A stretch of 64,000 bases of DNA from Escherichia coli (GCA_025544715.1 GCA_025544715.1_4109.1), one strand, 5' to 3'; positions 1,861 to 25,000 are shown, counted from the stretch's first letter. The notes: generated by a model not told the origin, from the sequence alone. Numbers and translations are program-made.

Positions 1861-1868
1861 TATAAATA
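1861..1868 (+). promoter_or_regulatory. T4-type late promoter motif TATAAATA
   Basis: Exact TATAAATA about 35 nt upstream of ATG 1903. Confidence 0.55.
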
Positions 1869-8396: not shown

Positions 8397-8404
8397 TATA
8401 AATA
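8397..8404 (+). promoter_or_regulatory. T4-type late promoter motif TATAAATA
   Basis: Exact TATAAATA 36 nt upstream of ATG 8440. Confidence 0.55.
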
Positions 8405-8439: not shown

Positions 8440-9171
8440 ATGATTGATCGTAGAATTCGATTACGACCTAAAGCCGCAGGTGCTAACTATGTATATGGTG
8501 ATTTCGGAGATAGCTCCGAACCAACACTACTTTCGTTTCTGCGTCCAACTAATGGGTTGGTTTGGACTGTAACACCAACAATTACTGAACAAAGGTCAAT
8601 TCAGTATGAAACACAGTCTCCTATACATACCAACAGTAACTATAACAACTATAAGAACACTACTAATACAGTTTTCACGATTCAGGGTGAATTTTATGCA
8701 AATACAGCAGCAGAAGCTATGTATGCATTGGCATGTGTTCATTTTATACGTTCTGTTTCATTGATGGATTTTGGTAGACAAGCTGCTTCGGCTAATAACC
8801 CCGAACTCGCAATTGCGGGTGCACCACCACCAATCTTACTTCTAAGTGGATATGGTCGTTATACATATAATGATATTCCTGTTATTTTAAAATCTTATAA
8901 TTTTACTTACCCAAATGATGTTTCTTATATTCAAGTTCCGTTGAATAGTAGCGATAGTACTTTTAATTTATCCGACATGGATAGTAGAAAATTCTTCGAA
9001 CAACTTAGAAGTACTGGGTACATGAATCCACAAGATGAAGTTTGGGTTCCACAAAAAATTTCAGTTATGTTACAACTTGAAGAACAACCTACATCTGATT
9101 ATATGACTAAAACGTTCAACCTAAATGCATTTAAACGTGGTGAACTATTACGTAAAGGAGGATTTATTTAA
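8440..9171 (+). CDS. Putative baseplate/tail protein (late gene)
   Basis: ORF track starts at TTG 8350, but the exact late promoter TATAAATA at 8397-8404 lies inside that extension; ATG 8440 with GGAG RBS is taken as the start. Confidence 0.5.
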   Translation: MIDRRIRLRPKAAGANYVYGDFGDSSEPTLLSFLRPTNGLVWTVTPTITEQRSIQYETQSPIHTNSNYNNYKNTTNTVFTIQGEFYANTAAEAMYALACVHFIRSVSLMDFGRQAASANNPELAIAGAPPPILLLSGYGRYTYNDIPVILKSYNFTYPNDVSYIQVPLNSSDSTFNLSDMDSRKFFEQLRSTGYMNPQDEVWVPQKISVMLQLEEQPTSDYMTKTFNLNAFKRGELLRKGGFI

Positions 9172-9485
9172 TGTCCAACTATAGTCAATACTCACCTTAC
9201 GCTAAGGTGAAACAAACATGGTATCTTGGGTATAATTTACCACGTGATATTGTTCCGGCTGATACTGATGATTTTTATGAGATCCCATTGAAATATGAAT
9301 ATCAACCTTGGCGTTTAGCATACGAAATGTATGGTAATGAACGCTTATATTATATTTTCGCATTGTTAAATCCAGACATACTAGGAGAAGATCCTATATA
9401 TAATTTTAAAAGTGGAGTAACAATTAGAATACCAGCAAATCAAAGAGTACAAAATTATCTTAATGGTACTCGAAACATAGGCTAA
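9171..9485 (+). CDS. LysM-like small baseplate protein (P2 gpX / T4 gp53 LysM-like)
   Basis: 104 aa; start overlaps upstream stop (TAATG) with AGGAGG RBS; C-terminal pattern ...NPDILGEDPIYNFKSGVTIRIP resembles the LysM-like tail protein X fold. Confidence 0.45.
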   Translation: MSNYSQYSPYAKVKQTWYLGYNLPRDIVPADTDDFYEIPLKYEYQPWRLAYEMYGNERLYYIFALLNPDILGEDPIYNFKSGVTIRIPANQRVQNYLNGTRNIG

Positions 9486-9496
9486 TGGAGTAACGT

Positions 9497-11746
9497 ATGG
9501 CAGATTTACGAAGTACAGTTGATAATTTTCAAAATGATATTACAAGTATTACTGGTAAGGCTAAAACCACCACATCTAATGCACTTGATAGTTTGAAAGC
9601 TACAGCAAATACATTACAAAATGATGTAAAAACTATTACAAAAAATAATTACAAAGCAAATGTAAGTAATGTAGTATCATTACCAAAACAAAGTGCTAGT
9701 GTCGATCAAGTTTATGAAGATCTAGATTTAAGTCAGTTTGTAATACCGTATGACAATAAATTATTGAAATATGATAATCCAACATGGCACTTTTGTTTAT
9801 TTGCCTTAGATAAAGATGATTTTAAAAACTTTTGGCTTTACCCAGATGCAGAAGTGCAACGACATGTAATATCAGAAAGTGGTGTTACTGGCAAATATAA
9901 TATCACTAGTGTACAAATGACACAAGCTGGCCCGTCAACACCAGGAATGACAACAAACTATTGCTTTAATACAGCAGTACTTAATATGTCTGAAAATAAT
10001 AGTATGAGTCTATATGACGAATTAATTTCGTTAAGTAACAAACTTAGATATCATAAATTCATGGACTTGCCATTGATCTTGGAATTAAAGTTTATTGGCT
10101 TTAATAAAAATGGAATACCTGAAATTATCCCAGAAACAACAAGACGCTGGTCAGTTAAAATTAATAGTGTTACTGCAAGTGCTTCACAAAGTGGTAGTAC
10201 TATGATGTATACTATGAACTTAGTTCATAATAGAGCAGCTTTAGTTGATAACATTGAATGGACATTAAAAGAACCATTCAATTGTACTGCTGAAAACTTT
10301 GGTGACTTCTGTTTTGATTTAGAAGATAAATTAAATCAGATGGCTGACCAACAATATGGTTATCTTAGATATAAATTTGGTGAATTATCCGAAGGTAAAT
10401 TTTTCGAATTTAAAGTAGCTCCTGATTTGCAAGATTTGTTTATAAACTATGATTCTAAACAAATGGCAGAGGCTGGAACAACTAAAAGTGGTGCACAAGG
10501 TTCTAAAAACTTTTCATGGAACCCAAGTACTCCTATATCTCGAATTATTGATGACGTTATTGATACATGTACTGTACAAGCAGATGATAGTACTAGTGTG
10601 CGTCAATTTGTAAACATTATACCAGTTAAACAATACGTTGGTTTTGATAATTATCGTAATACTTCTGTTTATAAAGTAATTTTTTACATTGTTAGATTTA
10701 AAATAGGTGATATTGTTCATGAATCTGATTTACAACCTGAAAATTTCACATTTGAGTACTTTTTTGAGAACGCAGAAAAATACGTAGATCCTAATGATCA
10801 AAAACCAAAAATAAACATGAAAACTTATAATTATCAATTTAGTGGGCTTAATAGTGAGATACTTGATTTGGATTTGAAATTTGATCAGCAATTTTTCGTA
10901 GCCACTACACGTAACCCTGGTCCGATACAAGATGTAGCGAACCATGCAGGTACACATACATCCCAAGAACTCAATATTCAAGGTGTACAATACAATAGTA
11001 TACCAGACGCATGGGCAAAAACAAGTGATTTACGTGTAACTCGTGATTTAGGAGGGATGTTAACACAAGCCCAACAACAATTGTTAACTGAAGTTGAAAC
11101 TTTAGCAAAAAATCAAATGCAGGTTGGTAACGCAGAAGAACAAGACCGTTATAATAACTATCAAGTCAATGTTTTACCTCAATATATTGAAGATTATGTA
11201 ACCACTTATGAAGAAAACGATGGCGGTACTGATGGTGTTGGTCACCGTTATGGTGAAGTGTTCACAATGCCAACCGAAGCAACTAACAATGAAACAACGT
11301 TATCCGCTTCGTTAAACGATAACAGCAGCACATATGAAATGGATAGACGTAAAATACGTGACAACTATTACAATAGACCTTTTTTGTGTAAACTCGATAT
11401 GCGTGTAGTAGGCGACCCGTACTGGTTAGGGTGGAGTGATTACTCTTACTTACAATATCTAGAACAAGTAATTAATGGTGAAGATATGGAAATTAACCCA
11501 GATGATTATCATGTAGCAAATTATATAACATCTGAAGCGTATCTATTACTAAAATTACAACCAGTAATATCAATAAATGATAACACTGGTGTTTTGGATA
11601 TTAATACACCAACTACATTTAACCAAACAATTTATCGTGTTAATAAAATTGTTCATGATTTTGGTGCAGGTGGTTCTTTTACACAACAAATTCAAGCTGC
11701 AATTGTAATTCGTGCACTCAAACGTCACGATAGTATAGTTGATTAA
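9497..11746 (+). CDS. Structural protein, candidate baseplate hub component
   Basis: 749 aa ORF immediately upstream of the central spike gene, same operon; helical N-terminus. Function assigned by position only. Confidence 0.45.
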   Translation: MADLRSTVDNFQNDITSITGKAKTTTSNALDSLKATANTLQNDVKTITKNNYKANVSNVVSLPKQSASVDQVYEDLDLSQFVIPYDNKLLKYDNPTWHFCLFALDKDDFKNFWLYPDAEVQRHVISESGVTGKYNITSVQMTQAGPSTPGMTTNYCFNTAVLNMSENNSMSLYDELISLSNKLRYHKFMDLPLILELKFIGFNKNGIPEIIPETTRRWSVKINSVTASASQSGSTMMYTMNLVHNRAALVDNIEWTLKEPFNCTAENFGDFCFDLEDKLNQMADQQYGYLRYKFGELSEGKFFEFKVAPDLQDLFINYDSKQMAEAGTTKSGAQGSKNFSWNPSTPISRIIDDVIDTCTVQADDSTSVRQFVNIIPVKQYVGFDNYRNTSVYKVIFYIVRFKIGDIVHESDLQPENFTFEYFFENAEKYVDPNDQKPKINMKTYNYQFSGLNSEILDLDLKFDQQFFVATTRNPGPIQDVANHAGTHTSQELNIQGVQYNSIPDAWAKTSDLRVTRDLGGMLTQAQQQLLTEVETLAKNQMQVGNAEEQDRYNNYQVNVLPQYIEDYVTTYEENDGGTDGVGHRYGEVFTMPTEATNNETTLSASLNDNSSTYEMDRRKIRDNYYNRPFLCKLDMRVVGDPYWLGWSDYSYLQYLEQVINGEDMEINPDDYHVANYITSEAYLLLKLQPVISINDNTGVLDINTPTTFNQTIYRVNKIVHDFGAGGSFTQQIQAAIVIRALKRHDSIVD

Positions 11747-11759
11747 GGAATAAAATATT

Positions 11760-14423
11760 ATGGCAGATACAAGTAAAAAGTATGCACAACAGCAGTTGGG
11801 TCGTTTTGACCCATCTTATCCGCAGTTAGCAACTGTTATGGATAACAGAGATCCAACTAAATCAGGAAAACTGAAAGTTTGGATACAAGGTTCACAGAGT
11901 GATAAAAACTCAAAAGAATCATGGATAGAAGCATCTTACATGTCTCCTTTTGCTGGCAAAACACCAGGCATTCCAAGTGCTGATGCATATGGTCAATATC
12001 CAAAAGGATACGGTTTTTGGGCAGTACCACCAGATGTAGGGTGTACAGTTGTTGTAATTTTTGCACAAGCCCGTACATTCCAAGCATATTGGATTGGTTG
12101 TGTATATGACCAGCGTATGAATACTATGGTTCCAGGTATGGCAACTGAAGTAAGTAATTATGGTGGAACTGATATGCCACTTCCTGTTACTGACTATGAT
12201 CGTAACACTATCACTACCGATATGCAAGACAAATATGCTAACGTTCCAATCATCGCAGGTCTTAAAAAGCAAAACCTTTTATATGACGAAGAAGCTGGGT
12301 TGGCGAATCGTAGTAGTACTCGACAAACCACAAGTACTGTATATGGGATGTCATCACCGCGTGGAAATAGTTTCATTATTGATGATGGATATACTGAAGA
12401 GGAATTAACTGCACCCACATGGGATCAAGACCCAGATGGATATCAAGATACGCAATTTAATAACCCAGTAAACGATACCCGTGTTGGTTCTCGTAAAAAT
12501 GAAGGTGTTGTAATAAAAACACGTAGTGGTGCACAACTTCTTTTATCAGAAGCAACTGGTGATGTTCTTTTAATTAACCGTGACGGTACTGCACGTATTA
12601 AATTCACTGGTGAAGGTGATATTGACATGCATTGTGACAAGAATATCAATATTCGTGCAGGACAAGATATTAATATTACGGCTGGACGTTCATACAACAT
12701 TGAAACCGGACAAGATTTCAATGCACGCGTTGGTGCAAATACTAAATTAGATCTAATTGGTGCTCTTGATGCAAAAGTTGGTGGACAAGTGGTGGTTAAT
12801 TCAGGTGCTGACCTTCGTTTAGTTACGGCTGCATCATTGCGTATGCAAAGTGGTAGCAGTACTGATATTACTGCTGGTTCAAATGCGTCTATTTCTGCTT
12901 CTACATCTGCAAACTTAATTGGTTCATCTTCAGCAATTGTTAGTGGTGGAGGTCAAACATTAACAGTTAATAGTGGTGGTAATAGCGGTACTGCTGAATT
13001 TACTGCACCAAATTTCAGAACACCATCTGCTGGTCTTAATGAACACATTCATGATATTGCCGCTTGGGTTAATGCTGAAAATCATGGTAGTTATGTTGAA
13101 CCACCAAGACAAGGTGGGGGGAGTGGCTCAAGTGAATCACCAGTTCAACCCCAGCCAGCAAACGATGTATCACCAGAACTACCAGTTGCACAAGATACAG
13201 AAGCTGTTCAGTTTGTAAACTATACATCAGAAACTGAACAAGTGCAATCTCAAGATTTAATGACATCTGACCCTGGAATGACTGGATATAGTATTACATA
13301 TGAAGGTTTACATATGTTCATGCCATGTAGTGGTACTATTCGCCAATATGGTTATTGGGGGAAAGGTGTTCCAACACAAAGTGGTGGGAAGTCAGATCGT
13401 TCTGGATGGGAAATACAATGTAAAGGTGACATAGTTGCACCCGATGGTGGTGTAATAGTAATTACTAATGGTGCACTGTTAATACAACATAAGTCAGGAT
13501 ATAAATCTGTATTTTATAATATTCAATCTGATTTATTAAACAAAGATGTTGTTCAAAAAGGACAAGTTGTTGGTAAAGCAAATGGTGTTATACAGTTTGA
13601 AATACGTGTTACATCAGCTAACGTGCTTGGTTTTAGCGGTTCAGTTGATCCTGGTCTATTTTATGCATCTCAAACTGGTACTGGTTCTGACGCAGCCAAT
13701 AAAACATTAATTGCAGGAAAAGCAACCAATCAATCTGCACCTCAAGCAGTAGTGCAACCTTCTGTTGATAGTGATGAATTAGTAGTTACTACAAAAATTA
13801 AAACAATTGGTACAGGTTATTCACAACGTGGTTCACGACATGTTCCTCGTCGAAGAAGAACACAAAGAAGTGGTGTTTCAACTACGCCAGTTGAGCAACC
13901 AACTTATAATATAGGTAATGTTGATAAAACAGCCATAGATTGGAAAGTTGTTCCAGGTGATGCTCAGTTTATTTCTGAATTAAAAGAATATGAGGGTACA
14001 TTACAATATCAACAAGCAAAGGGATATTATCGTAATGGTAAGTTCTGGCGTTATTTAGACAGTCGTGGATATCCAACTATTGGTTACGGTCACTTAATTG
14101 TTAGCGGTGAAAACTTCTCTGATGGAATAACTGAACAACAAGCAAATGATATGTTAGTTCGTGATAGTAGTAAAGCAATTTATGATGCCAAATCAATTTA
14201 TGCTTCATATAACATGAAAACTCCTTATCTTGCTCAACAAGTACTATGCCAAATGGTATTTCAGATGGGTAAAGGTGGTGTATTGAAATTTAAAACTATG
14301 TTATCAGAAATGGCAAAAGGTAATTATAAACAAGCAGCGGCACAAATTCGTAATTCTGCTTGGTATCGCCAAACCACACGCCGTGCGGAGTTAATGGCTC
14401 GTCGTTTGGAGGCATGTCAATAA
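11760..14423 (+). CDS. Central baseplate spike (gpV/gp5/VgrG-like) with beta-helix, degenerate M23-like domain and C-terminal GH24 lysozyme
   Basis: 887 aa. N-terminal OB-like region (GKLKVWIQG...GFWAVPPDVGCTVVVIF...YWIGCVY); repeat-rich beta-helix-like stretch (NINIRAGQDINITAGRSYNIETGQDFNARVG...); Gly/Ser/Pro linker; LytM-like segment lacking the HxxxD and HxH zinc ligands; C-terminal lysozyme (EYEGT...YLDSRGYPTIGYGH). Confidence 0.8.
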   Translation: MADTSKKYAQQQLGRFDPSYPQLATVMDNRDPTKSGKLKVWIQGSQSDKNSKESWIEASYMSPFAGKTPGIPSADAYGQYPKGYGFWAVPPDVGCTVVVIFAQARTFQAYWIGCVYDQRMNTMVPGMATEVSNYGGTDMPLPVTDYDRNTITTDMQDKYANVPIIAGLKKQNLLYDEEAGLANRSSTRQTTSTVYGMSSPRGNSFIIDDGYTEEELTAPTWDQDPDGYQDTQFNNPVNDTRVGSRKNEGVVIKTRSGAQLLLSEATGDVLLINRDGTARIKFTGEGDIDMHCDKNINIRAGQDINITAGRSYNIETGQDFNARVGANTKLDLIGALDAKVGGQVVVNSGADLRLVTAASLRMQSGSSTDITAGSNASISASTSANLIGSSSAIVSGGGQTLTVNSGGNSGTAEFTAPNFRTPSAGLNEHIHDIAAWVNAENHGSYVEPPRQGGGSGSSESPVQPQPANDVSPELPVAQDTEAVQFVNYTSETEQVQSQDLMTSDPGMTGYSITYEGLHMFMPCSGTIRQYGYWGKGVPTQSGGKSDRSGWEIQCKGDIVAPDGGVIVITNGALLIQHKSGYKSVFYNIQSDLLNKDVVQKGQVVGKANGVIQFEIRVTSANVLGFSGSVDPGLFYASQTGTGSDAANKTLIAGKATNQSAPQAVVQPSVDSDELVVTTKIKTIGTGYSQRGSRHVPRRRRTQRSGVSTTPVEQPTYNIGNVDKTAIDWKVVPGDAQFISELKEYEGTLQYQQAKGYYRNGKFWRYLDSRGYPTIGYGHLIVSGENFSDGITEQQANDMLVRDSSKAIYDAKSIYASYNMKTPYLAQQVLCQMVFQMGKGGVLKFKTMLSEMAKGNYKQAAAQIRNSAWYRQTTRRAELMARRLEACQ

Positions 14424-14435
14424 ATATTTTAGCAC

Positions 14436-14443
14436 TATAAATA
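14436..14443 (+). promoter_or_regulatory. T4-type late promoter motif TATAAATA
   Basis: Exact TATAAATA 17 nt upstream of the lysozyme ATG at 14460. Confidence 0.5.
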
Positions 14444-14459
14444 AAACGAGGATATCTTT

Positions 14460-14948
14460 ATGAGTAAATGGGAAATTAAAAATACAGATGAGCAATTTTT
14501 TAAGGAAATTAAAGAATTTGAAGGAACTATTGCTTATCAGAAAAAACTTGGTTATTTTAAAAATGATAAGTTTTGGGTATATAAAGACAGTTTAGGTCTT
14601 GATACTATTGGTTATGGTCATCTAGTTCTTCCTGGTGAAAATTTCAAGAATGGTTTGACCGAAGCTCAAGCTGACCAACTTCTTCTCAAAGATGCTCAAA
14701 CTGCGTACAATGATGCAAAATCAATTTATGAACAATTCGGTATGACCGCACCAGTACAGGTACAACGTGTATTATGGTTAATGGTATTCCAAATGGGAAA
14801 AACCAAAGTTTTGAAATTTAAAAAAGCAATGACCGCATTAGGTAAAGCTGATTACAAAACTGCTGGTAAAGAATTGCGTGATAGTACATGGTATAAACAA
14901 ACCACTTCACGAGCGGAAAAGATGGCACGTATCGTTGAATCCGTATAA
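14460..14948 (+). CDS. Lysozyme, glycoside hydrolase family 24 (T4/P22 type); probable endolysin
   Basis: 162 aa; EFEGT...YKDSLGLDTIGYGH catalytic region; paralogous to the C-terminal domain of the spike; TATAAATA at 14436-14443 and GAGG RBS upstream. Confidence 0.85.
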   Translation: MSKWEIKNTDEQFFKEIKEFEGTIAYQKKLGYFKNDKFWVYKDSLGLDTIGYGHLVLPGENFKNGLTEAQADQLLLKDAQTAYNDAKSIYEQFGMTAPVQVQRVLWLMVFQMGKTKVLKFKKAMTALGKADYKTAGKELRDSTWYKQTTSRAEKMARIVESV

Positions 14949-14963
14949 TAAAGGAAATAGACA

Positions 14964-15359
14964 ATGGCAGTTGTTTTTAAAGGGTTTTCTACCCCTGTAG
15001 TTGGTAGAACTGAAACATTGTATGATAGTGAATTGGTTCGCCAAGATTTAATGAATCATTTCAATACAAAAAAAGGTGAACGAGCATTTGATGCTGACTA
15101 TGGGTTTATTGCATGGGATTTGCTATTTGAATTGGAAGGTTATAATACTATCAACCTTTTAGAAGCAGATGCCCGTAGAATAATTAGCTTAGACCCACGT
15201 TTAAATCTTAAAAAATTACAAATTTCAAGAATAGAATATGGATACCAAATGAATATTGTATTACAGTACGTAGTATTGGACACATTAGAAGAACTTACTA
15301 TAGTATTTGATGCAAGAAGTAATAATCGAATGGCAACATATTCAGTTTCGTCTTTATAA
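14964..15359 (+). CDS. Baseplate wedge protein, gp25 / P2 gpW-like
   Basis: 131 aa; segment TKKGERAFDADYGFIAWDLLFE resembles the gp25 family core (RKGSRPFDPEFG...LFE, recalled from memory); sits between spike and gp6/J-like gene as in P2 (V-W-J). Confidence 0.65.
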   Translation: MAVVFKGFSTPVVGRTETLYDSELVRQDLMNHFNTKKGERAFDADYGFIAWDLLFELEGYNTINLLEADARRIISLDPRLNLKKLQISRIEYGYQMNIVLQYVVLDTLEELTIVFDARSNNRMATYSVSSL

Positions 15360-15365
15360 TTATAA

Positions 15366-15393
15366 AAGCACTCTTCGGAGTGCTTTTCTTTTT
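15366..15393 (+). terminator. Rho-independent terminator
   Basis: AAGCACTC-ttcg-GAGTGCTT followed by TTCTTTTT. Confidence 0.8.
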
Positions 15394-15460
15394 GAATAAA
15401 TATTTCTATATATAATTCCCAGTACTGAACTAGTACTTTACTGATTTAAAGGAATAAATT

Positions 15461-18400
15461 ATGTCACAACAAAAAAGGCAATCAAATTTATACGCTGGTG
15501 AGGATTGGACTCAAGTATATGAAAGTTTTTATAAAATCAATCTAACAGCTTATGATTTCGATACTATCCGTCAGAGTATGATTGATTATCTACGTGCAAC
15601 TTACCCAGACTCATTCAACGACTGGATCGAAAACGACCAGTTTATTTTTATTTTAGATACGATTTCTATGCTAGGTCAGAACTTGGCATTTCGTATGGAT
15701 TTGAACACACGTGAAAACTTTTTAGATACTGCAACTCGTCGTGCATCAGTACTAAAACTAGCTAAAATGATTTCTTACTCACCACGCCGCTCATATCCAG
15801 GTCGTGCAGTTGCTAAATTAACCGAAATTAAAACAAACCAAGATGTTCGTAATAGTTTTAATGAATCATTAAAAGATAAAATCATTCGTTGGAATGACCC
15901 GATGGATGCTAACTGGTATGAAAACTTTATTCTAGTAATGAACAGTTCATTTGTCAGTACTAACCAATTTGGTAATCCAGTCAAGCGTATTGATGTTAAT
16001 GGTGTCTCCCGTCAACTATATCGAATGAACACCATCCCAATGACAGCACCCAGTATTCCATTTATTGCAACTGTCAATGGTGAATCTATGACATTTGAAG
16101 TAGTGAATCCTGACATTACGTCTGTTGGTGTTGAAGAACGACATCCAGAACCACAAGAGCAAAAATATATTGTTTATCAAAATGATGGTAATGGATTTAG
16201 CTCACCAAATACTGGGTTTTTTGTATATTTCGTACAAGGTACATTAACATATCAAGATTATCAATATGCTATCCGTGAAGAGAACCGTATACAAGATATT
16301 AACGTTGATAATATCAACGAAACTGATGTATGGGTTCAAGAAATAAATGAAGATGGTATTGTTCGTACCAAATGGACAAAAGTTCCATCAATGGAAAGTA
16401 TTGCATATAACACTGTTAATCGTCAATTAAAAACAATTTTTGCTGTTACTACTCGTGATAAAGACCAAATAACAATTAAGTACCCAGACTCAAGAAGTGG
16501 TGTTGTTCCCCGTGGGACGTTCCGTGTATGGTATCGTGTTAGTAATGGTAAAACATATAACATTAAAACTTCTGAAATTCAAAACAAAAGCGTAAAATAT
16601 ACATATCGCACAAAAACACAGTCAAGTTATGAATCTAGTACATTGGATATACGTTTTTCATTACAATATGAGTCTGACCGTGCACAAAGTGCCGAAACTA
16701 TTGAGCAAATTAAAGCACGTGCACCACAAATGTACTATACCCAAAACCGTTTTGTCAATGGTGAAGATTATAATATAGCACCACTTAGTTTAGGAAATAC
16801 TGTACTTAAATCTAAAGCTATTAATAGAATTTATAGTGGTCAATCAAGGTTCATTGATATCAATGATCCTACGGGTAAGTATCAGAATACCGACGTTTTT
16901 AGTGATGATGGTGCATTATATCAAGAAAACACGCAATTTAATAGATCGTTATTGCTCCCAACTACAAAAACAAATGCTAGTATTGTTATTGACAATATTC
17001 AACCATTGATTGGGGAAAATGCAGTAATACAACGTTACCAAGCGTATCCATCCAATACAATTGGTATTGAAATACAACAAGCATGGACTCCTGTGTACAA
17101 TTCAAATTACACAACCAATACATATGGCAGAATTTTGGGTTCGTCTGGAACAGTGTATGGTTCGTATCAGGTAGGTACTCTTATTAAATTTTCTAATTCT
17201 GGTACTACGATATGGGCAAGTGTTGTAAGTGTGTTAGATAATGGTTTTTATGTACTAAGCACATCTGTTCCTAGTGGAATGCAAGCAATAGAGTACATAT
17301 TACCATATAGAACTAGATTTAACACAGTTGAAGTTCAGTCTATTTCTGCTATGTTGGATAAAAAAACCGATTTTGTAATTGTACATGATAAAGAAACAAC
17401 TTCATGGGTTCCAATCGAAGCAAGTACTAATGACGATACTATTGTGTATAATGGTAATGAAGTTTTAATTATAATAAATGTAAAATATACTGCTGAAACT
17501 TGGGAATTTGATGCTAATGGTATTGAATATATATTTGTGGGTGGGGATAAAGTAAGATTTTATTTTGTATCATCTAAAAAAATCACTGATATAAGTACTG
17601 GTACAGTTCAAAGTGATAAGATTGAAATTTTATCATCTAACACTACTAGTAGTAGTAATTCAGGATTGACAAGTAATATAGATTTTCAAATTTATGACAC
17701 AATTCAACAAGAGAATGGCTATCTAGATGGTTCTCGTGTTATTGTTACATCTAGAAAAGTAGATAGTAATGGTATACCGTTGGAACCAAACCAATTTAAA
17801 GAAATTGTTCCTACCTGGACAGGAACTGATGCATTAAAATATGGTGGTATTTTGGTATTTCAGGAAAATAGTGATTTCACTATATCAGTACTGTCTTTAC
17901 CAAATGATACCTTCACACTTCTTGATTCATCGTGGTCTTATACAATGGAACAAGCCTTGGCAGAGCCGAATGCATATAAAAGAACTGAATTTGTTAGAAA
18001 TAACGCAATTCGTTCAACCACATTGAGTGGATTATATAGTAAAGGTTCTGGATTTTTAGTTGGTTTTAACTATGATGGTAAATATTATTTTATTGAACAA
18101 ACAGTTGGCAATAACAATGATCGTTTGGGACAACTAATTAGTAATTTAACTTATTCCGATGATACTGGCACTGTTAGTCCTGAATTGGCTTTTTATCGTG
18201 CAATTAATAACATGGGAACTAATGCTGACGAGAATCAGAAGCTAGATTATTATGGATACAAAGATGTTACTTCACAGTACACTGTTAAAACTAATGCACG
18301 TACTAGTATAGACTTCCATTGGAAACACTATGCACCTGACGACAATAGAATTGATCCTAGTAGAACAAACTTAATTGATATGTATGTATTAACCAATTCA

Positions 18401-18922
18401 TATAAAACTGAAGTTGACGTTTGGTTGAAAAATAATGCTGTTGGTAGTATTCCTAAACCACCAACATCGGTTGAATTGAAAGATATGTTCAAAGATGTTG
18501 AACAAAAAATAGTCATTAGTGATAGTATCATTTGGCATAGTGCTGAGTACTTACCTTTATTTGGAAACAGTGCTGCTGAAGATTACAAAGCTGATTTTAA
18601 AGTAGTGAAATTACCAAACAGCACAATGAGTGATGATGAAATTCGTCAAAATGTCATAGCATTAACTAATGAATACTTCAATGTTGATAACTGGGATTTC
18701 GGTGAAAGTTTCTATTATACTGATTTGTGTACTTACATACACTCACAGTTAGGTAGACATATTAGTACTATTGTTATAGTTGCACAAAATCCAAATTCAA
18801 AATTTGGCTCTCTATTTGAAATCCCTTCACGTTCAGACCAAATATTCTTGAGTACTGCATCTGTTGAAAATGTTCAAATTGTTAACTCACTAGCTAAAAG
18901 TAATATTAATATCGGTTCTTAA
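15461..18922 (+). CDS. Large baseplate wedge protein, candidate gp6 / P2 gpJ-like
   Basis: 1153 aa ORF with AAGGA RBS; follows the gp25/W-like gene; strong terminator downstream. Confidence 0.5.
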   Translation: MSQQKRQSNLYAGEDWTQVYESFYKINLTAYDFDTIRQSMIDYLRATYPDSFNDWIENDQFIFILDTISMLGQNLAFRMDLNTRENFLDTATRRASVLKLAKMISYSPRRSYPGRAVAKLTEIKTNQDVRNSFNESLKDKIIRWNDPMDANWYENFILVMNSSFVSTNQFGNPVKRIDVNGVSRQLYRMNTIPMTAPSIPFIATVNGESMTFEVVNPDITSVGVEERHPEPQEQKYIVYQNDGNGFSSPNTGFFVYFVQGTLTYQDYQYAIREENRIQDINVDNINETDVWVQEINEDGIVRTKWTKVPSMESIAYNTVNRQLKTIFAVTTRDKDQITIKYPDSRSGVVPRGTFRVWYRVSNGKTYNIKTSEIQNKSVKYTYRTKTQSSYESSTLDIRFSLQYESDRAQSAETIEQIKARAPQMYYTQNRFVNGEDYNIAPLSLGNTVLKSKAINRIYSGQSRFIDINDPTGKYQNTDVFSDDGALYQENTQFNRSLLLPTTKTNASIVIDNIQPLIGENAVIQRYQAYPSNTIGIEIQQAWTPVYNSNYTTNTYGRILGSSGTVYGSYQVGTLIKFSNSGTTIWASVVSVLDNGFYVLSTSVPSGMQAIEYILPYRTRFNTVEVQSISAMLDKKTDFVIVHDKETTSWVPIEASTNDDTIVYNGNEVLIIINVKYTAETWEFDANGIEYIFVGGDKVRFYFVSSKKITDISTGTVQSDKIEILSSNTTSSSNSGLTSNIDFQIYDTIQQENGYLDGSRVIVTSRKVDSNGIPLEPNQFKEIVPTWTGTDALKYGGILVFQENSDFTISVLSLPNDTFTLLDSSWSYTMEQALAEPNAYKRTEFVRNNAIRSTTLSGLYSKGSGFLVGFNYDGKYYFIEQTVGNNNDRLGQLISNLTYSDDTGTVSPELAFYRAINNMGTNADENQKLDYYGYKDVTSQYTVKTNARTSIDFHWKHYAPDDNRIDPSRTNLIDMYVLTNSYKTEVDVWLKNNAVGSIPKPPTSVELKDMFKDVEQKIVISDSIIWHSAEYLPLFGNSAAEDYKADFKVVKLPNSTMSDDEIRQNVIALTNEYFNVDNWDFGESFYYTDLCTYIHSQLGRHISTIVIVAQNPNSKFGSLFEIPSRSDQIFLSTASVENVQIVNSLAKSNINIGS

Positions 18923-18955: not shown

Positions 18956-19001
18956 ATCATAAATAAATCAAATGAATGAACGAATTATATGGAGTCCAAA
19001 A

Positions 19002-22000
19002 ATGACTAATAATTTTAAGTTTCAACCTACACAGATGGCTGAAGCAGTACAGAAGAAGCTTTTTATTAAAAGATTGCCTGAGTGGATGCAAGGCTTAGAA
19101 GATATTCAAAAAGTCAGTGATGATGTTATTCAACAATGGTTTAATCCGGCTGAAAACGAATTAGTTGACGGCTATATTGGTGATATGGGTTCTCCTGCCG
19201 CTGCTGGTAATATCTTCTTACATGAAAGTACTGTAGCACGTCAACTTTATCAGTTGTCCACTGCTTACGTCTCAAAAAATGATGATTCGACAATTCGTTC
19301 AATTCAATTTTATGATGATCTAGTTGGATACATGAATCATTATGGAGCACTAACCGATAATGAAAGCCGTTTGTTCAACGGTAAGTTTTATGCATGGACT
19401 CCAGCTATTAACCCAAATAAAATGAACAATTTTAGCTCATATCTTTGGGACACTAAAAACTCTTATAATATTACTTCACCTGATTACATTGTAATGGAAC
19501 GTGGAGCACTTAATGGTAATACATGGTCACTACAAAACTTTTGGTATACTTTAGGTGAAACTTTAGAAGATGGTTCAATTTTAACTGAAGAATTAATGCA
19601 AGATTCTCGCTTTATTCGTGCCCGTGCTCCAATTATCGAATATAATAAAAATATTGAACTAATTAACTACGGTACAAAATTCCGTGGAACTGTCGATCTA
19701 TTCTCAGATATAATCAAACCTGAAGATATCGTACAAAAAGATATTAATAGTGGCATCCGTATTGATGGTATTATTCCACAAGATGGTATGCGTATTCTAT
19801 TCACCAGTATTGGTAACAATGGTGAAAATAATAGAATTTATAATGTATATGTCAAAAAAATGCAGGATGGTACTCGTGTTTATGGTTTGGCATTAGATCC
19901 AGAAGAAGAAACCGAATCACGCCCAAGTGGTGAACCTCAAGATGGTGATGTTGTTCTAATCACCAAAGGTAATGAGTATGGTAACAGTTCTATGTACTGG
20001 AATGGTTCTTTGTGGGTTCGTGCACAATCAAAAACTAGTGTTAACGTATTCCCTAAATTCCAACTTTATGATCGTAATGGTATCAAACTTGACAACAGTA
20101 CTACATATCCATCCAGTAACTTCAACGGTTCACAATTGTTTGGATTTAAAATAAATTACAACTATGCAACTGATAGTGTATATGGATATAACATCGAACT
20201 TGGTGATTACAATTATTACATGTATGAAAACTTTTTACAATCACAACGTTATACCTATGACCATCTTGGAATTGAAGTTGAAATTGATGGTTTATACTAT
20301 TATAATATTATTGATGAAAATAATGAAATGAATCTCCAAACTGATTGGGTTCGTTCAGAAGAGTACTCTAAACAATATGTAAAACAAACACCACAAGTAC
20401 AACGTACTGACATGTATCGTGTGTTCAGCACTGTTTATGATATGGAAGTTTTTAAAGAACCTGTTGATGGTATGTATGCATATGTTGTTGAAGTTGATAG
20501 AACCTATCAGTACTATAAAGCAGACCGCGAAACTTATCTAGACTGGCATCCAATCACTGGTGATGGTGTTCAGATTGTAAAATATGACCACACATTCGAA
20601 TTAGCACAAAAAGTTTTAGATAATGATTCTGACATAATTGAAGTTGTTGTTGATGGTGTTGATGTATCAAAATATACCAAAAATGTATCAAAAGGTCAAG
20701 TTCAAAGTATCACCTTAGATAGCACTGTAGATTTGGATGAAGATTCAGTTATTCAAATTAGAACTTATAGCAGTACTGTAACTCCTAATAAAGAATTAGG
20801 TGCATATGAAGTTCCAATTAACTTACAAAATAACCCATACAATTCCAATATTATATACATTAACCAAGGAGACTACACTCTACATTTTCAGGATATTATT
20901 CAAAAGAACATTACAAGTGGTTCATCTGACGATTTTAATGATTATGAAGAACGTTTAGCGAAAGGATTGGTTAATAATGGTGTTGGCACTAAAATTATCC
21001 AAAATGAAGCATCTATGCTTCCATTGATGGCACATACTGCAAATGAAGACATTGATTTGTTTGAAGCAACTATGTTTATGCAATCTGAATATTTTAGATT
21101 TATTAATAAGTTTAATACTCAAATGCTTCGTATGTATGATGAAAATCCATCAGATTTTTTGCAAAATAGTGCTGCAAATATTGTTGATTCTATTTTAACT
21201 ACTATCAATATGGGGCGTGATAGTTCATTCCCATTCTATTATGATAATGTTGGGAGTACTTCTGGATTTATTCGTGCATTTATACCACCAACACCACAGT
21301 TCTTGGGTATTCTACAAGCATATGTTCCAGAAAAAGCGACATTCCTTACTGCTGGTAGTAAACCAAGCTGTTATAACATCAGTCATACTGGTATTATTTC
21401 GAAAGCATATCGTGTCATCAATGGTGTTGATAAAATGGATGATGTTGTATATGAATTAGAAAATAGAATTTTTAATAGTATCGATAATAAATTCAAAGAT
21501 GTTGATTATGTTCCAGTTTTGAACAGTGATGATCTTTTTCCTACACCATATTTCACAAAAACCGAATATAGTGCAGAAGAGAAACAAACGCTATTGTTAC
21601 GTGGTTATATTAACTTTACTGCATCTAATGGTATCAGTAATAGTACACATGATTATGATCCTAATAATTGGAGAACTTGGAACTATACCGGAACCTATTA
21701 TGTAGTTAATGGTCAAAGTACTGAAATTCCTGCTCGTGGTTCATGGCGTGCAATTTATACTGACCAATATGGTACATATCGCCCTGCAACACATCCGTGG
21801 GAAATGTTTGGCTTTTCACAGCGTCCAACTTGGTGGAACCAAGAATATGAACCAACTGCTGTTCAAGTTGGTGAGCGTGATAGTGATGTGGTATATGTAT
21901 ATGAAGCACTTGTTATGAATGAACAAGGAGATTTAGTTCCTAGTGGTCTATGGGATATCGACGGCACTATCGGAGATAGTAGTACTGGTACTATTTTGTC

Positions 22001-25000
22001 TGGTGATCGCCGTGGACAGTATGACAAATATAAAAGATTTGGTGTACAGCCATTTAAAATCACAAAAACTGGTAATAAAACATCTTCCGGTATTGATATT
22101 TGTGTTGTTGAATATATTGCACCTGAAATTTTAGGTTTAGTGTCTGGTTCTTTAAATCATAGAGCAGAACCTTGGGCATATGGTGACATGGGTGACATGG
22201 AATTTACATACATGAACACTACATTGTTTGCATATGACCAAATGCTACTTTTGTATAAAGCTAAACCTGCACAATTTGCTAACTATTTTTGGGATACCCG
22301 AAATGACAATTTAAAAGAAGTATTCACTGATGGTTCACAATTCCTTTATGGTGATACACGTAAGCGTATTAATTTTGATAAAAACACTGTAGTTCATGGT
22401 GAAAATAACACAAGAACAATTGGTTATCAAATGTTTGTTAGTGATTATTTGATGTATCAAAATAAAAACATTACAACCAAATATGGGGATGTAGTTCGTT
22501 CTTCTTATATAAATGTTGGTCATAAAATTGGTGGTTTTACTAAAGCAGATCAGCTAACATTCAATGCTAAATCATTTGGTCTTATTTCACAAGAAAACCA
22601 AACTATTGGTCTTGTTCGCTCGAATAATATTCGTGATGAACAAATGAGTGCTATCAAAATTACTTGGAATGGTAGTGCATATCAGATTGATGGATATGAT
22701 TTAGTTGGTGCTAAATTCAAATATAAACTGCCAGTGAAAAATGGTAGAAAAGTAACTCTTAAATTAGAAAACCGCAATGTTGTTCATTATAACGAATGGA
22801 AATCTGAAGCTTCCATTGAATATGGTAAAGTTTTTAATAGTTACCAAGAAGTTTATACTTTTATTTGTGGTTATGGTGAATATCTTAAAGAACATGGCTG
22901 GATTTTTGAAGATGTAAATGATAGTGGTGCTCAACAAGATTGGAACACTATTGCTAAAGATTTTGTGATCTGGAGTCAGAATTCTCTGGTAACGGGTGAA
23001 TTTATTTCTTGTACACCAAGTGCAGCAAATGCTAAATTTGGTGCAGACTTTGGTTCAGTTCAATCTATTACACAAAATAACGGTGGTGTGTGGTCATTAC
23101 TTGATGATAACAACCAAGGTATACGTCAATATGAAATTGAAACTTCTCGTATTGGTAATATCTTTACTGTTAGAACTTTAGAATCCAATAAACGTATAGC
23201 ATTAATTCGTTTAAGTTTGTGTTCATATGAACATGCTGTTATTTTTGATGATAAGACTATTTTTGGTGATTATATCTATCAGCCAACTTATGGTTCTATT
23301 CAAGAATTAATTAAAATGTATGGCTACATTACTGGTTCATGGACTGGTCGTCTACAAGCTCCTGGATTTATTATCTTGGAAGCTGGAACACTACCATCAT
23401 TTGAAAAATTAGTGTCGGATTTCCAACATTATTATGATAGTGAAACTCCAGTAAGTGATGTACAATTACAAGAGTTGTCAAACCATTTGATTGGTTATCA
23501 ATCTCGTGATTATCTACAGCGTATGATTAGTAGTGATGTTAGTCGTGTTGATTTCTATAAAGGATTCATTCATGATAAAGGTACTAACCAAGTTTTAGAA
23601 CGTGTACTTCGTGTTTCTAAATCATATGACACTGATGAATATAAAGCATTACAAGAATGGGCATTTAAAATTGGTACATATGGTAATATTGATGGTAAGA
23701 AAAATCTTCAATTTAAATTGATTAATGACCAATTTAAACAACAACCTCAAATGGTTTCTTTTGATGTAAATGCAACTTCAAATGGTAATGGTAATCATAT
23801 TGTATACTTTGGTGAGCAGGGTAAAGATCCTCGTTGGATTACACGTCCAAATGGTAAGTTCTCATTCCCAATGCGTAGTGGAAGAAGTGAAAATATCCAA
23901 CTTCCAGATATTGGTCCAGTAACATTGGATGAAGTATCGTACACAACAAAAGATTTCAGTACTGCATATAATGACCGCATAACTTATACTAATGGTAAAG
24001 GTGAAAATCCTGAATCTGTGTGGATGTTTAAAGACGGTAATGGCTTGTGGAACATTTTTGAATTGGTTGATACTAATGTGCAAATGGTTTCTATAACACC
24101 TATTGAAAATACCGATGTGTATGCTGAACAATTTTGTAAAGTAACTTTAACTGATAATGTACCACTTGAAGATGGTGATTATTATTATTTTGTTGATGAA
24201 ACTAACTTTATGCCAGATACTTTAACAGTAGAAAGTCAATATTATACTGCTGGTTCTGATCCTAAAGTTATGGTAGTTCCATTTGACACTTCTATTGATA
24301 TTGAATTTACTGATCCAGATACACGCCCACGTTTGTATCGTTATGTATCACGTTTTGTCAGTACTGATGAACGTCAAGCTTACATTGACAAGAAATATAG
24401 TTTTAAAGCACCACAAAGTACTTTATTTGATCGTCCAACAACATATGACGAACGTACTAACATTACTGAGCTATATCTAAACGTTTATGACCCAATTAAT
24501 GGTGTTATTCCAGGTGCGGCTATGCAAAACGTAACATATACTTCACCAGTTGATCCTGCACAGTATAATAGTAATGGAGAGTTAATCCAAGCTTGGGGTG
24601 CTGATAAAGTTGGTCAAGTATGGTGGAACACTAGCACTGCATTTTATTTGGATTATACTCGTGCAATTTATGACGCAGACGGTAATGTTGACATTGATGC
24701 AACAAATGAATACAAACGTTACAACTGGGGTCGTTTATTACCACATAGTACAATTGATGTGTTAGAGTGGGTTTGTTCACCAGTTGAGCCATATAACTGG
24801 GACAAATACTGTAAAGATGTTGCTAAGAAAAACAAAAATAATACTATGTATCTACCAAGTGGAACTGCACTTGAAGATAATTATAGTACATTTTTGGAAT
24901 ATGATAGTTCAACTGATAGTTATGTGACAAAATACTATTTCTGGGTACGTGATACAATTTATGTACCACCACTACATACCAGAACAAAATCATGTACTGA

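Follow-up and report, generated by a model that had tools for sequence, protein, structure and literature searches.

The central spike of the T4 baseplate, gp5, is a trimer built from an OB fold, a GH24 lysozyme (residues 190-326 of the gp5 chains) and a beta-helix (residues 444-543), in that order, and it is processed during maturation. It is capped by a PAAR protein, gp5.4 (bioRxiv 10.1101/2023.02.25.529910). The Fe-binding Apex-type spikes P2 gpV and phi92 gp138 consist of an OB fold and a beta-helix with an HxH motif right after the helix, and gpV ends ~12 residues past that motif. In the 'evolved' VgrG proteins of the T6SS, a VgrG-type beta-helix is followed by a C-terminal cell-wall-directed enzyme; VgrG-3 of Vibrio cholerae, a peptidoglycan-degrading protein with a C-terminal effector, is one of these. 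The closest described systems are the Rak2-like jumbo myophages. The 2013 description of RaK2 reported a spike of 'very unusual domain composition', with the same architecture as the one discussed here, and recorded three lysozyme paralogues, of which gp073 and gp078 are 66% similar (PMC3622015). In 2017, a central M23 match was recorded in the spike of CBB (PMC5259590).

The spike encoded at the present locus shares with gp5 the OB fold, GH24 lysozyme and beta-helix of a baseplate spike, and its lysozyme is homologous to that of gp5 (E ~1e-8 to gp5 chains), but the order is opposite: OB fold, VgrG/gp5-type beta-helix, HxH motif, degenerate M23/LytM-like domain (dLytM) and, last, the lysozyme. 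T4 gp5 has neither a LytM domain nor an HxH. As in gpV and gp138, the HxH directly follows the helix, but ~456 further residues then lead to the C-terminus of the 887-aa chain. The 'evolved' VgrG proteins offer a parallel for an enzyme placed beyond the helix, although the present spike is a phage virion protein without a fused gp27-like module, and its effector portion is GH24 plus dLytM.

The locus and its relatives

The window, a 64-kb stretch of DNA, is 97.6% identical in nucleotide sequence to coliphage 121Q. Its + strand encodes the 96-kDa spike (11760..14423), an orthologue of 121Q gp587, RaK2 gp078 and CBB_240, and next to it a free GH24 lysozyme of 162 aa (14460..14948, +; 18.7 kDa, pI 9.3), assigned by reading frame, Pfam, alignment and tree. 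Both reading frames coincide exactly with those of the original prediction, which had also proposed a domain order unlike that of T4 gp5; Pfam, PDB alignments and the VgrG profile match agree on that order. Taken as a whole, the reading that we favour, at a probability of roughly 70%, is of an Asteriusvirus (121Q-like, Rak2-like) jumbo myophage whose baseplate bears the 887-aa protein as its central spike, in a predicted trimer.

The layout had been put forward as noteworthy. It is real, but it is not new: papers of 2013 and 2017 had described it in orthologues from sister phages (PMC3622015, PMC5259590). The orthologous pairs 121Q gp587/gp586, RaK2 gp078/gp073 and CBB_240/CBB_239, as well as phAPEC6 gp241, have the same domain order, and the window departs from the published Rak2-like orthologues by strain-level differences only. 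Absent from the published descriptions are the degeneracy of the M23 domain and the internal HxH.

The neighbouring genes, which include gp53-like, gp25-like and gp6-like ones, place the spike in a baseplate cluster, and the synteny (gp53-like, a protein of ~750 aa, spike, 162-aa lysozyme, gp25-like, gp6-like) is common to Rak2-like phages. The protein upstream of the spike (749 aa in the window) gave no matches against the PDB. Mass spectrometry has found spike orthologues in virions: CBB_240, phAPEC6 gp241 and a 96.3-kDa protein of pEa phages, the masses in the phAPEC6 and pEa tables being theoretical only. The C-terminal modules are missing from the PA5oct-like spike of Callisto, which has 477 aa; because this shorter spike does without them, we regard them as an add-on.

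Divergence from 121Q is mosaic, dS being 0.13-0.44 over spike residues 1-505 but no more than 0.03 over the stretch that begins at residue 506 and includes the free lysozyme. In the spike there are 73 synonymous and 2 non-synonymous differences from 121Q. Measured against phage A4, dN/dS is 0.20 for dLytM, 0.15 for the spike GH24 domain and 0.11 for the free lysozyme, and the substitution patterns point to purifying selection on every domain. The sequence signals for the spike domains, the M23 homology, the loss of histidines and the paralogy of the lysozymes are far beyond chance.

The N-terminal half of the spike

A gp5/gpV-type OB fold occupies residues 23-116 (11826..12107, +; Pfam PF04717, Phage_base_V, E 7.8e-7, 29.8 bits against a cutoff of 23.8). 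It is followed by a triple-stranded beta-helix of the VgrG/gp5 type at residues ~251-415 (12510..13004, +), within which DUF2345 matches residues 278-329 (E 1.6e-8, 34.9 bits, cutoff 30.7). When a profile of the N-terminal half was searched against the PDB, the best matches were VgrGs, with VgrG1 (4uhv) at the top over residues 251-432 (E 4.5e-6); the phage central spikes 9f4a and 8kea were also matched. A PF04717 OB fold leading into a triple-stranded beta-helix is the arrangement expected of a gp5/gpV/VgrG central spike.

The end of the helix carries H-I-H (H429 and H431; 13044..13052, +), a putative histidine-cage (Apex-type) metal site recognised by motif conservation: in the context S/G-L-x-x-H-x-H it occurs exactly once per protein in 18 of 18 family members. 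HxH has been used as the criterion for an Apex domain (bioRxiv 10.1101/2023.02.25.529910), in which the motif lies at the tip near the C-terminus; here it is internal and mid-chain. Because the profile search of the N-terminal half against the PDB matched neither P2 gpV nor phi92 gp138, the Apex assignment is drawn from the HxH itself. We discounted the 4uhv alignment as support for the motif, as part of it overlaps the C-terminal His-tag of that chain. The HxH probably forms a metal-clamped tip, with H429 and H431 as the candidate metal ligands and a tip geometry that is likewise predicted.

Linkers and possible processing

Alignment and composition define two linkers beyond the HxH. The first, at residues 446-505 (13095..13274, +), is acidic (pI 4.05), rich in Gly, Ser and Pro, and contains a conserved PANDV. 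The second, at residues 641-727 (13680..13940, +), is basic (pI 10.1) and holds the conserved motif ELVV...IGxGYSQRGSRHVPRR, in which RHVPRRRRTQR is encoded at 13836-13868; as a matter of speculation, it could serve as a processing site. An alternative that we consider unlikely is that dLytM and GH24 are cut off during assembly, at the basic RHVPRRRR or in the acidic linker, and are then bound non-covalently or lost. The conservation of both linkers, together with their extreme composition and the highest dN/dS values in the spike, the basic linker ranking first and the acidic one second, would suit such cleavage, T4 gp5 maturation provides a precedent, and a tip formed by an HxH within the protein fits poorly with 450 more residues per chain. 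Against it, the RaK2 proteins detected show no post-translational cleavage, the spike not being among those detected (PMC3622015).

The spike lysozyme and its free paralogue

The C-terminal domain of the spike, residues 728-887 (13941..14423, +), is a T4-type GH24 lysozyme by Pfam, PDB, alignment and motifs. PF00959 (Phage_lysozyme) matches residues 765-882 (E 2.3e-11, 44.5 bits) and the free lysozyme (37.0 bits) above the cutoff of 22.3, and the spike domain matches both the T4 gp5 lysozyme and T4L in the PDB. Its Glu745, Asp767 and Thr773 align with E11, D20 and T26 of T4L, as do the corresponding EFEG, KDS and TIGYGH motifs of the free copy, such that the catalytic Glu, Asp and Thr are kept in both; from these residues the spike lysozyme is apparently active. 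An insertion of ~13 residues between the catalytic Glu and Asp sets the spike domain in a different GH24 subfamily from that of gp5.

Spike residues 728-885 and free-lysozyme residues 4-161 align without gaps at 52% identity (E 7e-57), so that the two are paralogues, as had been anticipated, and belong to one GH24 subfamily. Orthologues set aside, the free lysozyme comes closest to the spike domain among 50,697 phage records (51-52% identity), followed by the endolysins of the T5-like phages AAS21 (Pantoea; gp136) and KEY (Erwinia) at 44-45%. These are the closest relatives of both copies outside the Rak2-like phages, and they carry the same Glu-Asp insertion. In contrast to the free copy, they adjoin a holin in a true lysis cassette.

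The suggestion that the duplication was recent did not survive the wider comparison. The tree separates a clade of spike C-terminal domains (bootstrap 100%) from one of free lysozymes (76%); each follows the phage phylogeny of Asteriusvirus, Alcyoneusvirus, Mimasvirus and Eneladusvirus, four genera in which the 162-aa gene also keeps its place in the gene order. A split between orthologous spike and free clades that is shared by at least four genera makes the duplication, on the evidence of the tree, ancient. Within single genomes the two copies are 44-60% identical.

Transcription signals and the role of the free lysozyme

The free lysozyme lies in a baseplate operon, where in all genera its neighbours are the spike gene on one side and the gp25-like gene on the other. 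A T4-type late-promoter-like motif, TATAAATA, is found at 14436..14443 (+), 16 nt 5' of its ATG. There are 3 copies of TATAAATA in the 64 kb against 10.1 +/- 3.1 expected, all of them on the + strand, intergenic, and 16-35 nt 5' of + strand structural genes. The copy at the free lysozyme is present in 121Q and RaK2 and absent in GAP32, CBB and BF. Downstream is a gp25-like baseplate wedge gene (14964..15359, +; Pfam GPW_gp25, E 1.2e-8), separated from the lysozyme by 15 nt here and by 9-15 nt across all genera. The transcription unit then ends at a terminator-like hairpin, 15364..15387 (+), beyond which the gp6-like gene has an ATAAATA-type promoter. Both signals, the hairpin with T-run and the (G/T)ATAAATA after it, recur in 10 of 10 further Rak2-like loci with a free lysozyme that we examined. 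A scan for sigma-70 promoters was uninformative (50 sites, 51.7 expected); only TATAAATA and the hairpin gave signal.

The original prediction had named the free copy as the endolysin. In the literature, the predicted endolysin is another gene, the third paralogue CBB_187 / 121Q gp532, with a TM segment, LysM and GH24 (PMC5259590). In 121Q, gp532 lies at 254191-255117, at a distance of ~60 kb and beyond the limits of the window, and we found no third lysozyme within the 64-kb window. No holin or spanin gene adjoins the free lysozyme, and the N-terminus of its product, MSKWEIKNTDEQ, is hydrophilic.

We weighed the view that the 162-aa protein is the phage endolysin and that it shares a recent origin with the spike domain, the virion lysin, through duplication or shuffling of domains between the two. 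The two copies are mutually closest non-orthologous relatives, and their nearest outside relatives, in AAS21 and KEY, are true endolysins adjoining holins. LysUE1, an orthologue of the free copy, is muralytic in vitro and lysed cells with EDTA (PMC12805682). In virions of CBB and phAPEC6, which stand for two genera other than Eneladusvirus, mass spectrometry did not detect the free lysozyme. These points are outweighed by the separation of the clades in at least four genera with only 44-60% within-genome identity, by the position of the gene 9-15 nt from the gp25-like gene with neither holin nor spanin nearby, by the existence of another gene with TM, LysM and GH24 as the predicted endolysin, and by detection of the free copy in Eneladusvirus virions, and we judge the endolysin assignment unlikely. 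That detection concerns an 18.1-kDa orthologue found at trace level in virion preparations of three Eneladusvirus phages, from 1-2 peptides and in preparations that also hold non-structural proteins; one detected peptide cannot derive from the spike. Peptides of the free lysozyme are SIYEQFGMTAPVQVQR and NGLTEAQADQLLLK.

By inference, the free lysozyme most likely either accompanies the baseplate in low copy number or acts as an auxiliary lysin in soluble form. A Vibrio-phage relative has the spike and lacks the free lysozyme, and thus the free copy appears dispensable for spike function there.

The LytM/M23-like domain

Residues ~506-640 (13275..13679, +) form a degenerate LytM/M23-like domain, recognised through Pfam matches of orthologues, a PDB profile search and hhalign. 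The window protein by itself matches PF01551 below the cutoff (E 9e-4, 19.8 bits against 28.7), but PF01551 is the best family for 9 of 9 orthologues (best E 3.3e-6). As a single sequence the domain found no matches in the PDB; as a profile, its top 8 matches were all M23/LytM proteins, DipM and SpoIIQ included. Alignment with the LytM domains of E. coli MepM, NlpD and EnvC by hhalign gave 91.5% probability (E 8.7e-7). A single-sequence AF2 model of the domain is all-beta, with a pLDDT of only 37.5.

Where MepM has H, D, H and HxH, the window protein has R, E, N and V-x-Q. Most or all of the M23 metal-binding and catalytic residues are missing in 18 of 18 family members examined, and no member has either His of the HxH or the YxH histidine. 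This is an M23/LytM homologue whose metal ligands have been lost, and the expectation that the zinc-binding histidines would prove absent was borne out against the family alignment, in which the catalytic histidines are missing too. From its residues, the domain is catalytically dead, and because those histidines are missing it is most sensibly read as non-catalytic.

M23 homologues without metal-binding or catalytic residues are known in EnvC and NlpD of E. coli, DipM and SpoIIQ, all of them bacterial regulators, of the divisome or of sporulation, that come with coiled-coil or LysM partners. The domain described here differs from EnvC and NlpD in being fused into a phage spike and in having family-specific motifs, and its likeness to them is one of sequence. 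We looked for it among 1.84 billion representative proteins, where it is confined to this spike family; a word-indexed search of 5.8 billion proteins, with the segment and with a 9-sequence profile, returned solely a 159-aa Morganella assembly fragment.

The domain might act as EnvC and NlpD do, recruiting or activating host periplasmic amidases or another hydrolase, the adjacent GH24 included, at the site of penetration. It would share with them the loss of metal ligands and an FEIR motif, it is under purifying selection although apparently dead, and it has invariant surface-type motifs (GYWG, GW.I, GF.G.VDPG) specific to the spike family. Active M23 enzymes have FEIR-like motifs too, however, and the restriction of the domain to these spikes allows no functional transfer from characterised relatives, such that we hold this role to be quite improbable. 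That the domain is instead an active peptidase with non-canonical residues is very improbable: RaK2 and P0004 keep the first His, the Asp position is Glu in the window, RaK2 and A4 and Asp in P0009, and one His (H577) is invariant, but no member has either HxH His or the YxH histidine, the retained positions differ among orthologues, and H577 is also kept in the non-catalytic EnvC and NlpD.

A model for wall penetration

Returning to the central-spike reading, the N-terminal half would be a conventional puncturing device, docked on the hub or tube through its OB fold. Past the HxH would come the acidic flexible linker, the dead LytM, the basic linker and a GH24 whose catalytic residues appear intact. 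Contraction of the sheath would drive the spike through the outer membrane and carry three tethered dLytM-GH24 modules into the periplasm, where the lysozyme would cut glycan strands locally while dLytM may bind, but not cleave, the stem peptides of peptidoglycan or some other partner in the periplasm. In function, such a spike would resemble the 'evolved VgrG' proteins, which bear an effector at the C-terminus. The free lysozyme would be expressed late within the baseplate operon, alongside the gp25-like gene, and by analogy with LysUE1 is probably enzymatically active.

A fuller version of this model seems to us a long shot: a counterpart of the 'evolved VgrG' with an internal metal-clamped HxH tip and three flexible dLytM-GH24 arms beyond it, in which the dead LytM mimics EnvC and NlpD by switching on host amidases or the spike's own lysozyme, and the free lysozyme is loaded separately, as a baseplate enzyme associated with gp25. 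If true, it would amount to a multi-component cell-wall breaching kit undescribed for any myophage.

The neighbouring lysozyme should be annotated neither as an endolysin nor as a recent copy. The gene products are candidate enzybiotics, an orthologue of the free lysozyme having already been purified to that end. For the Rak2-like family, what the present analysis adds is an HxH conserved mid-chain and a conserved, selected and apparently dead LytM module, which poses a testable question about dLytM function outside bacterial division. In this giant myophage, puncture by mechanical force would go together with enzymatic opening of the cell wall, through a domain layout that is the reverse of the T4 textbook case.

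Locus and source phage

The spike ORF (11760-14423, + strand, 887 aa) and the adjoining free lysozyme ORF (14460-14948, + strand, 162 aa) were located exactly as in the original prediction. Their DNA is 97.6% identical to genes 587/586 of Escherichia phage 121Q and ~93% identical to PBECO4, G17, phAPEC6 and others, and we therefore assign the window to an Asteriusvirus, a Rak2-like jumbo myophage. The neighbors include gp53-like (9171-9485), gp25-like (14964-15359) and gp6-like (15461-18922) baseplate genes. Directly upstream of the spike is a 749-aa virion protein (9497-11746) that matched nothing in Pfam or the PDB. It is conserved among enterobacterial Rak2-like phages, its orthologues have been seen by mass spectrometry, and Vibrio phage 2.275.O lacks it at the corresponding position. 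This protein may be a candidate gp27-like hub.

Several other features of the region were recorded. A sigma-factor gene is annotated beside the cluster in 121Q (gene 591). Downstream of the gp6-like gene, a 3333-aa ORF (18972-28973; orthologue of 121Q gene 582) encodes one of the largest phage structural proteins, orthologous to 381 kDa virion proteins detected by mass spectrometry in phAPEC6 and Eneladusvirus phages. Between its gp25-like and gp6-like genes, 121Q carries a 765-nt homing-endonuclease-like gene (584), annotated as "protein associated with group I intron"; this gene is missing from the window phage, whose spacer is 101 nt versus 838 nt in 121Q, and the conserved terminator and promoter 3' of the gp25-like gene are kept in both (window 15364-15460).

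Domain order of the spike

Three Pfam matches scored above their gathering thresholds: a gp5/gpV OB fold (spike residues 23-116), a VgrG-type beta-helix (DUF2345, residues 278-329) and Phage_lysozyme (residues 765-882). A profile built from ten N-terminal halves aligned over residues ~251-432 with type VI secretion VgrG beta-helices (4uhv, E 4.5e-6) and with phage central spikes; we left out as an artefact the stretch of the 4uhv alignment that enters the His-tag of that chain. In T4 gp5 chains the lysozyme (190-326) precedes the helix (444-543), and the predicted reversal of domain order in the window spike is thus borne out.

All 18 members of the spike family have one HxH motif directly after the beta-helix, in the context S/G-L-x-x-H-x-H (H429/H431 in the window). 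A study of the P2 gpV Apex describes HxH after the helix as the hallmark of an Fe-binding histidine cage forming the spike tip, with spikes lacking HxH using a PAAR cap (bioRxiv 10.1101/2023.02.25.529910). In the window spike, by contrast, the motif lies mid-chain, followed by an acidic Gly/Ser/Pro linker (pI 4.05), the degenerate LytM domain, a basic linker carrying the conserved ELVV...GYSQRGSRHVPRR (pI 10.1) and finally the lysozyme. Because the 477-aa spike of Callisto, a PA5oct-like phage, has no C-terminal modules, we regard these modules as an addition in the Rak2-like lineage.

The intermediate domain

The window segment alone scored below the cutoff against Pfam M23 (E 9e-4, 19.8 versus 28.7 bits), yielded no match in a single-sequence PDB search and gave a single-sequence structure model whose pLDDT of 37.5 was too low for use. 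PF01551 was the best family for each of nine diverse orthologues independently (best E 3.3e-6), the top eight PDB places for a nine-sequence profile were all M23/LytM (LasA, zoocin A, SpoIIQ, DipM and TagE among them), and hhalign against the LytM domains of E. coli MepM, NlpD and EnvC gave 91.5% probability (E 8.7e-7). In a joint alignment the window protein has R and E at the positions of the MepM H and D of HxxxD, N at that of the H of YxH, and V-x-Q in place of HxH. Neither histidine of HxH, nor that of YxH, is present in any of the 18 members, and at two other active-site positions the residues kept differ among them. Judged from these alignments, the domain is an M23/LytM homologue predicted to be catalytically dead, as had been proposed.

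The spikes of the window and 121Q differ by 73 synonymous and 2 non-synonymous changes, and dN/dS against phage A4, approximate with dS near saturation, is similar for the intermediate domain (~0.20) and the lysozyme domain (0.15); the former is therefore constrained despite the loss of its active-site residues. When 1.84 billion representative proteins were scanned exhaustively with HMMER, the intermediate domain was found in only nine clusters, seven of them full-length spikes of ~870-985 aa with the domain at the matching position and two short fragments. The only match in a 5.8-billion-protein database was a partial Morganella morganii protein (NCBI, 159 aa), 100% identical to spike residues ~471-513 and encoded on a 479-bp contig; it is probably phage DNA carried within a bacterial assembly.

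Synonymous divergence from 121Q is mosaic: it is 0.13-0.44 over spike residues 1-505, and from residue 506 through the free lysozyme gene it does not exceed 0.03, with no differences in that gene itself. The pattern points to a recombination breakpoint near nt ~13270, where the puncturing half meets the enzymatic half.

Paralogy and age of the lysozymes

Spike residues 728-885 align with the free lysozyme without gaps (52% identity, E 7e-57), and both copies retain equivalents of T4L Glu11/Asp20/Thr26. Between Glu and Asp they share a ~13-residue insertion, which explains why the Pfam lysozyme match starts only after Glu. This insertion, ~13 or more residues long when compared with T4 lysozyme (EGT-LQYQQAKGYYRNGKFWRYL-D; window 13986-14069 and 14505-14585), also occurs in the gp532 paralogue of 121Q and the AAS21/KEY endolysins, and marks a distinct GH24 subfamily.

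In a neighbor-joining tree (200 bootstraps), enterobacterial spike domains formed one clade (100%) and free lysozymes another (76%; 46% with XaC1 included), the two being sisters (68%), with the AAS21 endolysin and the Vibrio spike domain just outside. Identity between the copies is 51-52%, versus 44-45% to T5-like endolysins. Each copy thus has the other as its nearest non-orthologous relative, as anticipated. The order spike, 162-aa lysozyme, gp25-like is kept in 121Q, A4, RaK2, GAP32, CBB, BF, fHe-Yen9-04, Munch, XaC1 and Hallingskeid; a distant Vibrio phage encodes the spike and lacks the free lysozyme. In RaK2 a 1.8-kb insertion with four small ORFs, two of them in reverse orientation, separates spike from lysozyme, and the lysozyme-gp25-like gap is still 14 nt. 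The separate clades contradict the proposed recent duplication: on this tree the split is older than the separation of at least four genera.

Expression and role of the free lysozyme

The T4 late-promoter consensus TATAAATA occurs at 14436-14443 (+) in the 36-nt spacer before the free lysozyme, at 1861-1868 (+) upstream of a structural gene starting at 1903, and at 8397-8404 (+) upstream of one starting at ~8440. The octamer is under-represented (3 copies in 64 kb versus 10.1 +/- 3.1 expected), and all three copies are intergenic and on the + strand, each preceding a + strand structural gene by 16-35 nt, a pattern that suggests a gp55-like late sigma system. It precedes the free lysozyme in 121Q and in RaK2, whose lysozyme has its own copy, and is absent in GAP32, CBB and BF, where the lysozyme must therefore be read through from the spike. 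All genera with a free copy have a lysozyme-to-gp25-like gap of 9-15 nt and a conserved hairpin terminator with an ATAAATA-type promoter 3' of the gp25-like gene, placing the free lysozyme in a late baseplate transcription unit.

A third GH24 locus is present in all Rak2-like genomes; it lies outside the 64-kb window. The 121Q copy, gp532 (308 aa; 33-37% identical to the other two), combines a hydrophobic N-terminal segment, a LysM match and Phage_lysozyme, and in the CBB paper CBB_187/121Q gp532, which has a signal-arrest-type transmembrane segment, is the gene predicted to encode the endolysin (PMC5259590). The free protein has neither such a segment nor lysis-gene neighbors, which argues against calling it the endolysin. 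LysUE1, its UE-S1 orthologue, is muralytic in vitro (PMC12805682).

In virion mass spectrometry the spike orthologue is represented by 3 peptides in CBB and by 7 in phAPEC6, and as a 96.3 kDa protein it was also identified in three Eneladusvirus phages; RaK2 virions did not yield it (PMC3622015). Virion mass spectrometry of CBB and phAPEC6 did not find the free lysozyme, and virion preparations of the three Eneladusvirus phages gave an 18.1 kDa orthologue at trace level (1-2 peptides). The BF free lysozyme (18.1 kDa) has no tryptic peptide in common with the BF spike, and it has a single 14-aa peptide that accounts for 9% coverage, so the identification is specific but thin; preparations yielding it also hold non-structural proteins. 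The free lysozyme could be either a virion component or a lysis factor.

Relation to earlier work and proposed function

The original observation is correct, well beyond chance. Because the architecture has been published for near-identical and related phages, little of the core finding is new: the 2013 RaK2 paper lists three lysozymes, puts the similarity of the gp073 and gp078 lysozyme domains at 66%, and describes gp078 as one of the largest baseplate lysozymes, with a "very unusual domain composition" compared with T4 gp5 (PMC3622015). The 2017 CBB paper records an M23 match in the middle of the CBB spike (PMC5259590). Our literature search turned up neither a Rak2-like baseplate structure nor any mention of M23 degeneracy in these spikes. 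The modest new points are the internal HxH, which the original prediction missed, the family-wide LytM degeneracy together with constraint, and a corrected view of the origin and role of the free lysozyme.

Most likely, the puncturing spike would work like an evolved VgrG and carry three tethered peptidoglycan-targeting arms across the outer membrane, each arm comprising the degenerate LytM domain and a GH24 domain predicted to be active from its kept catalytic residues, and the ancient paralogous lysozyme would be co-expressed with the gp25-like protein.
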